From Escherichia coli (lineage in GTDB: Bacteria; Pseudomonadota; Gammaproteobacteria; Enterobacterales; Enterobacteriaceae), in NCBI RefSeq assembly GCF_003334255.1, contig NZ_QOWU01000147.1: a stretch of DNA of 1,812 bases; one strand, 5' to 3'. The notes beneath the pieces were generated by a model. The model searched no databases. It had not been told where the DNA came from and was given only the letters and a program-made list of their open reading frames with translations. Each line of letters opens with the position of its first letter. Positions within the stretch are counted from its first letter, which is position 1. Shown here in pieces: positions 1-1,812 of this stretch. The position numbers were made by a program, and so were the translations under genes.

Positions 1-1812
1 GAAGCACAAACGCGAGAATCCGCCCACGGTGGTATCGGAAGCCATGGCAGAACTTCGCGCCCTGCCCTCGTTTCTTGGCAACGTGCTCATTCGTGATCTG
101 GCGCGTTTAAACCGCAAACAACAAAGCGCCCGCAATGAAGGCGTGAAAAACAACAACACTCACGTGGCCGATAACTTCGTTCGCCGTGGACTGCGCACAC
201 GCCTGAAACGCATCGAACAGGTGAATGAATGCTTCGCCACGACGGCATTCAAAGCCACCGCAGCGCGTCATCGCCTTGATGAATTACTCATGCTGCCACA
301 ACTCAACCGTGATCAAATTCAGCGCCTTGCCACACTAACGGCGGCGGCATTTTCCACCGAACTGGAACGCATATGTGATGAAGTTACTGAGCGGACAGGA
401 AAAGGCGACGATAACCTGTTTACCTGGTTGCTGACTTACCAGCAGCTGGCGCGCATGGCAATAAAACTGGGCGTGAACCCACCATACTGGCCGTCACTCG
501 AGATCAGACGTGACCGCCGCACGGCACCAGACCCTGAACTGGTACCGGGCGCGGTAATGCGTATCACCTGCGCCACCTGGTGGAACAACCAGCTGCGCCA
601 CCTCGCTGATCTCTGGCGGGAGGAATTACTGCGTGCCGCCGGAAGAGTATCGCGCAAGGCATCCCCCTACATCAGCCATGAGTCACTCCAGGAATTCCGG
701 GAGAAACGCCAGCGCACCCGTGATTTTCTCAAAAGCTGGGACATTGAAAACGAAGACGGTGAACGCCTGAGCCTGGAGGACGTGTACTGGTCAGGGCTGG
801 GGAATCCGCGCAACCGCCGCAACGAGATGATGGCCTGCGTCAGAGGGATGGAACAGGTCGCCGAATCGCGTGGTGACTCCGCGTTCTTCGTGACAGTGAC
901 CTGCCCTTCCCGCTTTCACAGCGTAAACGAGGACGGCAGCCTGAACCCGAAATACAACGGTGCCACCGTGCGCGATGCCAGTGATTATCTGGTTTACGAC
1001 GTCTTTGCAGCTGCAAGAAAAAAACTCAACAAAGAAGGCCTGAGCTGGTACGGGGTGCGCACCGTTGAGCCACACCATGACGGCACACCGCACTGGCACA
1101 TGCTGGTATTCACCGCCCCGGACAATGAAGAACGCATCATTGAAATCATGCGTGACGCAGCAATCAAATCAGATCGCGCAGAACTGGGGAATGATATTTC
1201 TCCGCGCTTCAAGTGCGAAAAAATCGACCCGGCAAAAGGCACACCGGCAAGCTACATCGCAACCTATATTGGCAAGAACCTAGACGCCAGCACCTTTCAC
1301 GACAATGACCCGAAAACCGGCAAACCTTACGCCGATAAAGAATCGGGAAAAACCATGGCGGAAACCGTGGAAAACGCCATTGCCTGGGCGAGTCTCCACC
1401 GCATCCGGCAGTTCCAGTTCTTCGGTATCCCGCCCCGCCAGGTATGGCGTGAACTCCGCCGCCTTGCCGGACAAATGGAGCGTAACCCCGCATCACCGAA
1501 GCGCCTGGACCATGACGACATTGACACCATTCTGGCCGCCGCTGACGTGGGGTGTTTTGCCACCTACATCAACCGTCAGGGCGGCGTGCTCATTCCACGC
1601 AACCTGTACCTGATCCGCACCGCATACGAAACCGCAGATGAGGCCAACGACTACGGCGAATTCCCGCAGCGCATCTACGGAATTTGTGCCCCGTCGCTCG
1701 GCGAGCGCTACACCATCTGCACCCATCCGGACGAGTGGAAACTGGTCAGAAAAGAAGCGAAAGCCGACAACAGCACGGACGAGGATTTTGACGTTGGGGG
1801 CGGCTTCGCCGC
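1..1812 (+). CDS. A: Internal fragment (5' and 3' partial) of a P2/186-type phage replication initiation protein gpA, a rolling-circle HUH nicking endonuclease
   Basis: Seen in sequence: the frame with codons at 2-4, 5-7 ... 1808-1810 has no stop codon across the window, while every other frame is interrupted (longest alternative ORF about 100 codons). Codons are dominated by enterobacterial preferred ones (ctg, cgc, ccg, gaa, aaa, acc, ggc). The translation contains FFVTVTCPSRFH (884-919), EPHHDGTPHWHMLVF (1067-1111, HUH metal-binding motif H-W-H followed by hydrophobics) and SYIATYIGKN (1250-1279, tyrosine codons at 1253-1255 and 1265-1267, Y-x-x-x-Y spacing). Established knowledge: this three-motif arrangement defines superfamily I rolling-circle initiators (phiX174 gpA, P2 gpA); I recognise the HHDGTPHWH block as gpA-like from memory, not from a database search. 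The first in-frame ATG in the window is at 44-46 but the frame is already open from the window edge. Confidence 0.85.

Follow-up and report, generated by a model that had tools for sequence, protein, structure and literature searches.

A seven-adenine slippery heptamer in the replication endonuclease gene of a P2-like Escherichia coli prophage is very probably an incidental product of Arg-Lys-Lys coding

The replication endonuclease gene and its A7 run

The window, that is, the whole stretch of Escherichia coli DNA analyzed here (1,812 nt), is open from position 2 as a stop-free reading frame of 603 codons. Its sequence agrees at 99.9% identity with part of a 2,514-nt coding sequence (CDS) annotated as “replication endonuclease” in the E. 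coli prophage NZ_CP075697.1 (locus L001, in which position 6001 corresponds to window position 1), and its reading frame represents residues 86 to 688 of the 837-amino-acid (aa) protein of this near-identical prophage copy. The 837-aa protein matches the Pfam family Phage_GPA (PF05840) over residues 189 to 514 (E value 3.6e-108, model positions 1 to 320 of 321) and, more weakly, the HUH core family REP_ORF2-G2P over residues 411 to 511. A PDB sequence search returned no solved structure among its relatives. The features of the window considered in this work are as follows.

2..1810, plus strand: internal part of a gene for a P2-type replication endonuclease of the gpA family, from the stop-free translation, the 99.9% identity, and Pfam
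1005..1016, plus strand: 12-nt perfect palindrome TTGCAGCTGCAA (Ala-Ala-Ala codons) abutting the A7 run; predicted hairpin of -2.8 kcal/mol (z = +0.95)
1016..1024, plus strand: AGA-AAA-AAA, encoding Arg424-Lys425-Lys426 and followed by Leu; the Arg is invariant in the family and both Lys are variable
1018..1024, plus strand: A7 homopolymer forming an A_AAA_AAA slippery heptamer in the gpA frame, from sequence and frame
1024..1068, plus strand: computed −1 reading beyond a slip, with 14 codons (TQQRRPELVRGAHR) closed by TGA at 1066-1068
1091-1099, plus strand: HUH motif, His-Trp-His (HWH) in EPHHDGTPHWHML, from sequence and translation
1253-1267, plus strand: Y-x-x-x-Y motif (Y-IAT-Y in SYIATYIGK), from sequence and translation

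The PF05840 match and the presence of a HUH motif and paired tyrosines in the translation place the protein in the Phage_GPA family. The HUH motif falls inside both Pfam matches, and we take the Y-x-x-x-Y motif to be the catalytic tyrosine pair expected from published work on P2 gpA; by analogy with that protein, both motifs would serve a catalytic role here. With the replication proteins of Xuanwuvirus phages, the 837-aa protein shares approximately 57% identity. It has the same Phage_GPA domain as bacteriophage P2 gpA, together with the HUH and Y-x-x-x-Y motifs, but it is only approximately 32% identical to P2 gpA, in which the corresponding codons lack an A run. Within the gene, a P2-ori-like sequence, GCCGCACCTTGGACTCGTGGCAATAACTGT (L001 7808-7837, from window positions 1808-1812 onward), resembles the annotated P2 ori nick region (GCCGCGCCTC and, directly after it, GGAGTCCTGTCAATAACTGT), and we therefore predict a prophage origin inside the gene, beginning at the last bases of the window and extending approximately 25 nt past its 3' end. 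E. coli STEC2018-607 carries the near-identical prophage, in which the annotation gives the large terminase subunit (L001 12315-13812) as a pseudogene with a frameshift; this prophage copy may be defective.

The run is exactly seven adenines long (g1017, a1018 to a1024, c1025) and is read as the codons AGA (1016-1018), AAA (1019-1021), and AAA (1022-1024), followed by CTC (1025-1027). A sequence-only reading of the window had described a phased A_AAA_AAA heptamer at this site, from which a −1 shift would reach TGA at 1066-1068 after 14 codons, and both the sequence and the reading of the shifted frame agree with that description. The shifted product would comprise approximately 440 of the 837 residues, or about half of the protein, and would end upstream of both the HUH and the tyrosine motifs, as had been proposed. 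Because the site lies inside the Phage_GPA match and near the start of the REP_ORF2-G2P match, truncation at this point would split the HUH core.

Conservation and length of the run among homologues

We compared the homologous codons in 194 loci drawn from E. coli genomes, phage records, IMG/VR, metagenomes, and GTDB genomes, a set in which some contigs are counted twice. The scans of GTDB genomes and IMG/VR returned mostly relatives of 40% identity or less, none of which has the run, and the informative intermediate lineages came from E. coli genomes. An equivalent of Arg424 is present in 194 of the 194 loci and is written CGN everywhere except in two lineages with A runs, where it is AGA. 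The second and third residues of the tripeptide are Ala, Lys, Thr, Arg, or Ser in the other lineages. The codons and A runs are distributed as follows.

Window lineage (96% or more, and 89%, identity over the CDS): AGA-AAA-AAA-CTC; A7
Sister lineage (approximately 78% identical over the CDS): AGA-AAA-AAA-ATA/ATC-AAA-AAA; A8, then A6 or A7
Third lineage (also approximately 78% identical): CGC-AAG-GCC or CGC-AGG-GCC; no run
Xuanwuvirus group: CGC-AAA-AAA or CGC-AAG-AAA; A6 at most, no heptamer
Klebsiella Kapieceevirus: CGT-AAG-GCG; no run
P2: CGC-ACG-GCA (Arg-Thr-Ala); no run
157 homologues of less than 50% local identity: CGC-GCC-AAG in most; A run of 4 or less

The A_AAA_AAA heptamer is found in only two of the three close lineages and is absent from the 164 loci of lower local identity; among the 157 homologues below 50% local identity, no in-frame heptamer occurs within 10 codons of the site (0/157). 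The comparison of homopolymer length across homologues that the earlier reading had called for has accordingly placed the run, as A7 or A8, in two close E. coli prophage lineages only. By eye, in a codon alignment, the position of the −1 stop is identical in both run-bearing lineages. In the sister lineage (loci L005 and L164 to L166; for example, L166 positions 2012-2032), the codons AGA-AAA-AAA-ATA/ATC-AAA-AAA are followed by GAG, and where the isoleucine is written ATA, two A_AAA_AAA heptamers are adjacent to each other.

Across the two run-bearing lineages, synonymous change is seen in 48% of the degenerate columns in which the amino acid is conserved, and in 35 to 44% of such columns within 5 to 15 codons of the site. 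The chance that three codons remain unchanged, calculated from the variable Lys and Arg columns (7/22 and 34/61, respectively), is approximately 0.2. In this comparison, which spans three lineages and has low power, synonymous variation is not reduced around the A7 site, and there is no apparent signal of selection on its nucleotide sequence.

Run length was followed in two sets of close copies. The 121-nt segment that includes the run has matches at 29 places in 26 E. coli genomes, every match being exactly 121 nt long, and all matches in 8 IMG/VR and 9 metagenome contigs are 32 nt long, corresponding to A7, with a contig search pattern that let the run vary by several bases; the IMG/VR runs were also read directly. 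The A8 of the sister lineage is likewise of constant length in 25 places in 24 E. coli genomes. We found no run-length variants among these E. coli places (29 with A7, 25 with A8) or among the 8 viral and 9 metagenome contigs, and in all copies fetched with their annotation the replication endonuclease CDS is intact. Since the length of the A7 run is stable in all assemblies examined, the intact 837-aa reading frame can be trusted for annotation. The suggestion that the run is a hotspot for indels and assembly errors was reasonable a priori, but it is not borne out by these copies, in which the A7 run always has the same length.

The only disrupted homologue that we found is that of Escherichia phage 503458 (L175, NC_049341.1), whose annotation divides the gpA homologue into three separate CDS. 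Compared with Shae_phiSM and the SE11 prophage, this phage has a 5-nt deletion by a T run at approximately positions 2450-2470; the deletion lies 8 nt upstream of the homologous Arg-Lys-Lys codons, which here contain an A6, and is outside that A6. The homologue is either a defective gene or the product of an assembly error.

Chance expectation and flanking signals

The window contains three in-frame heptamers of the X_XXY_YYZ type, T_TTA_AAC at 106, A_AAA_AAA at 1018, and G_GGA_AAA at 1345. The expected number is 3.09 when synonymous codons are shuffled with the protein kept and 2.25 when codon order is shuffled, so that a lone in-frame slippery heptamer has to be read against a chance yield of about three in a gene fragment of the window's size. 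From T_TTA_AAC (106-112), a −1 shift reaches a stop at 136-138 after 8 codons, and from G_GGA_AAA (1345-1351) it reaches one at 1450-1452 after 33 codons. An A run of at least 7 appears in 5.6% of the synonymous shuffles and in 33% of the codon-order shuffles. The 5.6% figure follows from the codon usage of the gene, in which AGA accounts for 5 of 60 Arg codons and AAA for 23 of 28 Lys codons; among the 603 codons there is a single Lys-Lys pair. The surrounding 13.8 kb of prophage has six A or T runs of 7. The A7 run is real, yet it is statistically unremarkable, and the only mildly unusual element of the site is its AGA codon. A second A-rich spot is an A6 in GAA-AAA-ATC (1218-1223), the phase of which does not make a heptamer.

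We also looked for the signals that accompany known recoding sites. Downstream of the run, the segments 1025-1070 and 1025-1110 fold slightly worse than their dinucleotide shuffles (z = +0.58 and +0.83, respectively), the sole helix near the run being one of 6 bp with a 33-nt loop and zero spacer. The region 1000-1060 as a whole is markedly unstructured (fold z = +2.38). The flanks therefore fold no better than shuffled sequence, which agrees with the earlier impression that the site has no stimulatory structure. Upstream, the 30 nt before the run contain no Shine-Dalgarno (SD)-like element in the form of GGAG, GAGG, AGGA, GGGG, AGGG, or GGGA. The palindrome TTGCAGCTGCAA next to the run was considered as a nascent-RNA hairpin for transcriptional slippage and ruled out on account of its low predicted stability and its loss in relatives; it is missing from those of 89% and 78% identity, and we judge it incidental. 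The T7 on the minus strand was considered as a part of a terminator or promoter, and a scan of 900-1150 showed nothing of either kind at the run on either strand.

Published measurements give a scale for what such a site could do. In a study that measured all heptamers in E. coli (Sharma et al. 2014; PMC4066793, Table S3), the −1 frameshifting rate of A_AAA_AAA was 0.405% for the unstimulated heptamer, 0.82% when the IS911 stimulators were present, and 24.8% when the IS3 pseudoknot was. E. coli genes contain AAAAAAA less often than expected in each of the three phases (z of -15, -28, and -25), an avoidance that has been attributed to slippage (PMC4066793). For transcriptional slippage, counter-selection typically becomes evident when runs reach approximately 9, and runs of 8 have been proposed as productive in a few other organisms (Baranov et al.; PMC1088944).

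Incidental coding and its alternatives

Based on these observations, we consider it very probable that the A7 run is an incidental by-product of the encoding of Arg-Lys-Lys and carries no programmed recoding signal. The tripeptide lies in the HUH nuclease core of the replication initiator of this P2-like prophage, where lysines written as AAA, the usual codon of the gene, together with an invariant arginine written as AGA in the window lineage, would suffice to give seven adenines. Judging from the published rate, ribosomes in this context would slip at most at the basal, unstimulated −1 level of approximately 0.4%, leaving a trace of a 440-aa fragment that would be cut within the catalytic domain and would probably be non-functional. 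Some observations run counter to an incidental origin: AGA is a minority Arg codon in the gene, all other lineages write the invariant Arg as CGN, so that a specific CGN-to-AGA change was needed, the run has been retained in two lineages that are approximately 78% identical to each other, and the −1 stop has the same position in both. Its persistence is also mildly unusual because AAAAAAA is so strongly under-represented in E. coli genes. Even so, programmed frameshifting, transcriptional slippage, and hypermutability each lack one or more of their defining features and are left as low-probability readings. With the incidental reading, the A7 run matters little, and a candidate recoding site is dropped from consideration.

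Programmed −1 ribosomal frameshifting in the style of dnaX tau/gamma, with an N-terminal gpA fragment free of nuclease motifs acting as a regulator or competitor, is very unlikely. The heptamer is correctly phased and is followed by a short −1 tail with a stop, both the heptamer and the position of that stop are common to the sister lineage at approximately 78% identity, and A_AAA_AAA can reach 25% when a strong pseudoknot follows (PMC4066793). Here, however, there is neither a downstream structure nor an upstream SD-like element, and the rate to be expected of an unstimulated site is approximately 0.4% (PMC4066793). Neither the third close lineage nor any of the 164 more distant homologues has the heptamer, synonymous variation shows no reduction, and the cut would fall within the catalytic domain. 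The literature searched yielded neither a gpA frameshift nor a truncated gpA product; in its checked mentions of P2, a recoding review (PMC5009743) cites the phage only for the frameshift in its tail genes (FETUD). The sequence-only reading had itself regarded programmed recoding as improbable, and the restriction of the run to certain lineages, the unsuppressed synonymous variation, the lack of a stimulatory fold, and the published rate of approximately 0.4% (PMC4066793) all point the same way.

Comparison with known −1 frameshifting sites shows where the resemblance ends. Like the A_AAA_AAG site of E. coli dnaX (tau/gamma), the gpA site is a slippery heptamer rich in A that encodes Lys-Lys within a replication gene, and a −1 shift there would add a short out-of-frame tail and leave the product truncated at its C terminus. 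The dnaX site, which is conserved, is flanked by an SD-like element upstream and a strong stem-loop downstream, and its shift occurs at approximately 50%. In contrast, the gpA heptamer ends in A rather than G, is without both flanking stimulators, is restricted to certain lineages, and has an expected rate of approximately 0.4%. The A_AAA_AAA/G sites of IS3-family elements (e.g., the IS600-type cluster A_AAA_AAA_1 of Sharma et al. 2014) are alike in heptamer and phasing; the IS-element shift joins two overlapping open reading frames (ORFs), with a stem-loop or pseudoknot as its stimulator (PMC4066793), whereas the gpA site has no overlapping ORF, opens onto only 14 codons, and has no structure.

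Slippage of RNA polymerase or of the replisome on the A7/T7 tract, which could act as transcriptional recoding, as a hypermutable switch turning prophage replication on and off, or as an assembly-error hotspot, is similarly improbable. Homopolymers have an intrinsic tendency toward indels, the sister lineage has A8 and then A6 or A7, and the avoidance of AAAAAAA in E. coli genes attributed to slippage (PMC4066793) would fit such behavior. A run of 7 nevertheless falls short of the threshold of approximately 9, or 8 in some organisms, for transcriptional slippage (PMC1088944), as the earlier reading had noted, and there is no strong upstream hairpin. Known transcriptional slippage sites (the A9 of Thermus dnaX; the A8 or A9 of IS elements) are, like the gpA run, coding A homopolymers on the sense strand, but they have 8, 9, or more adenines against 7 in gpA, which also has neither a conserved ORF architecture that depends on slippage nor any length heterogeneity. 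A hypermutable homopolymer would be polymorphic in length, and the A7 and A8 lineages alike show a single length. The annotated copies are intact, and the break in phage 503458 lies outside its A6.

It is still less probable that A7 and A8 have been kept in the two prophage lineages for the sake of a 440-aa N-terminal gpA fragment, made by low-level −1 slippage and devoid of the nuclease motifs, that modulates replication initiation. If this were the case, the fragment might, for example, compete for the origin or for host partners, and it would represent a dnaX-gamma-like isoform of a HUH rolling-circle initiator.

Finally, a sequencing or assembly error in the run length of the window is extremely unlikely: although homopolymers are classic error sites on some sequencing platforms, the reading frame is intact across the run, and the identical A7 sequence is present in dozens of independent assemblies from different projects.
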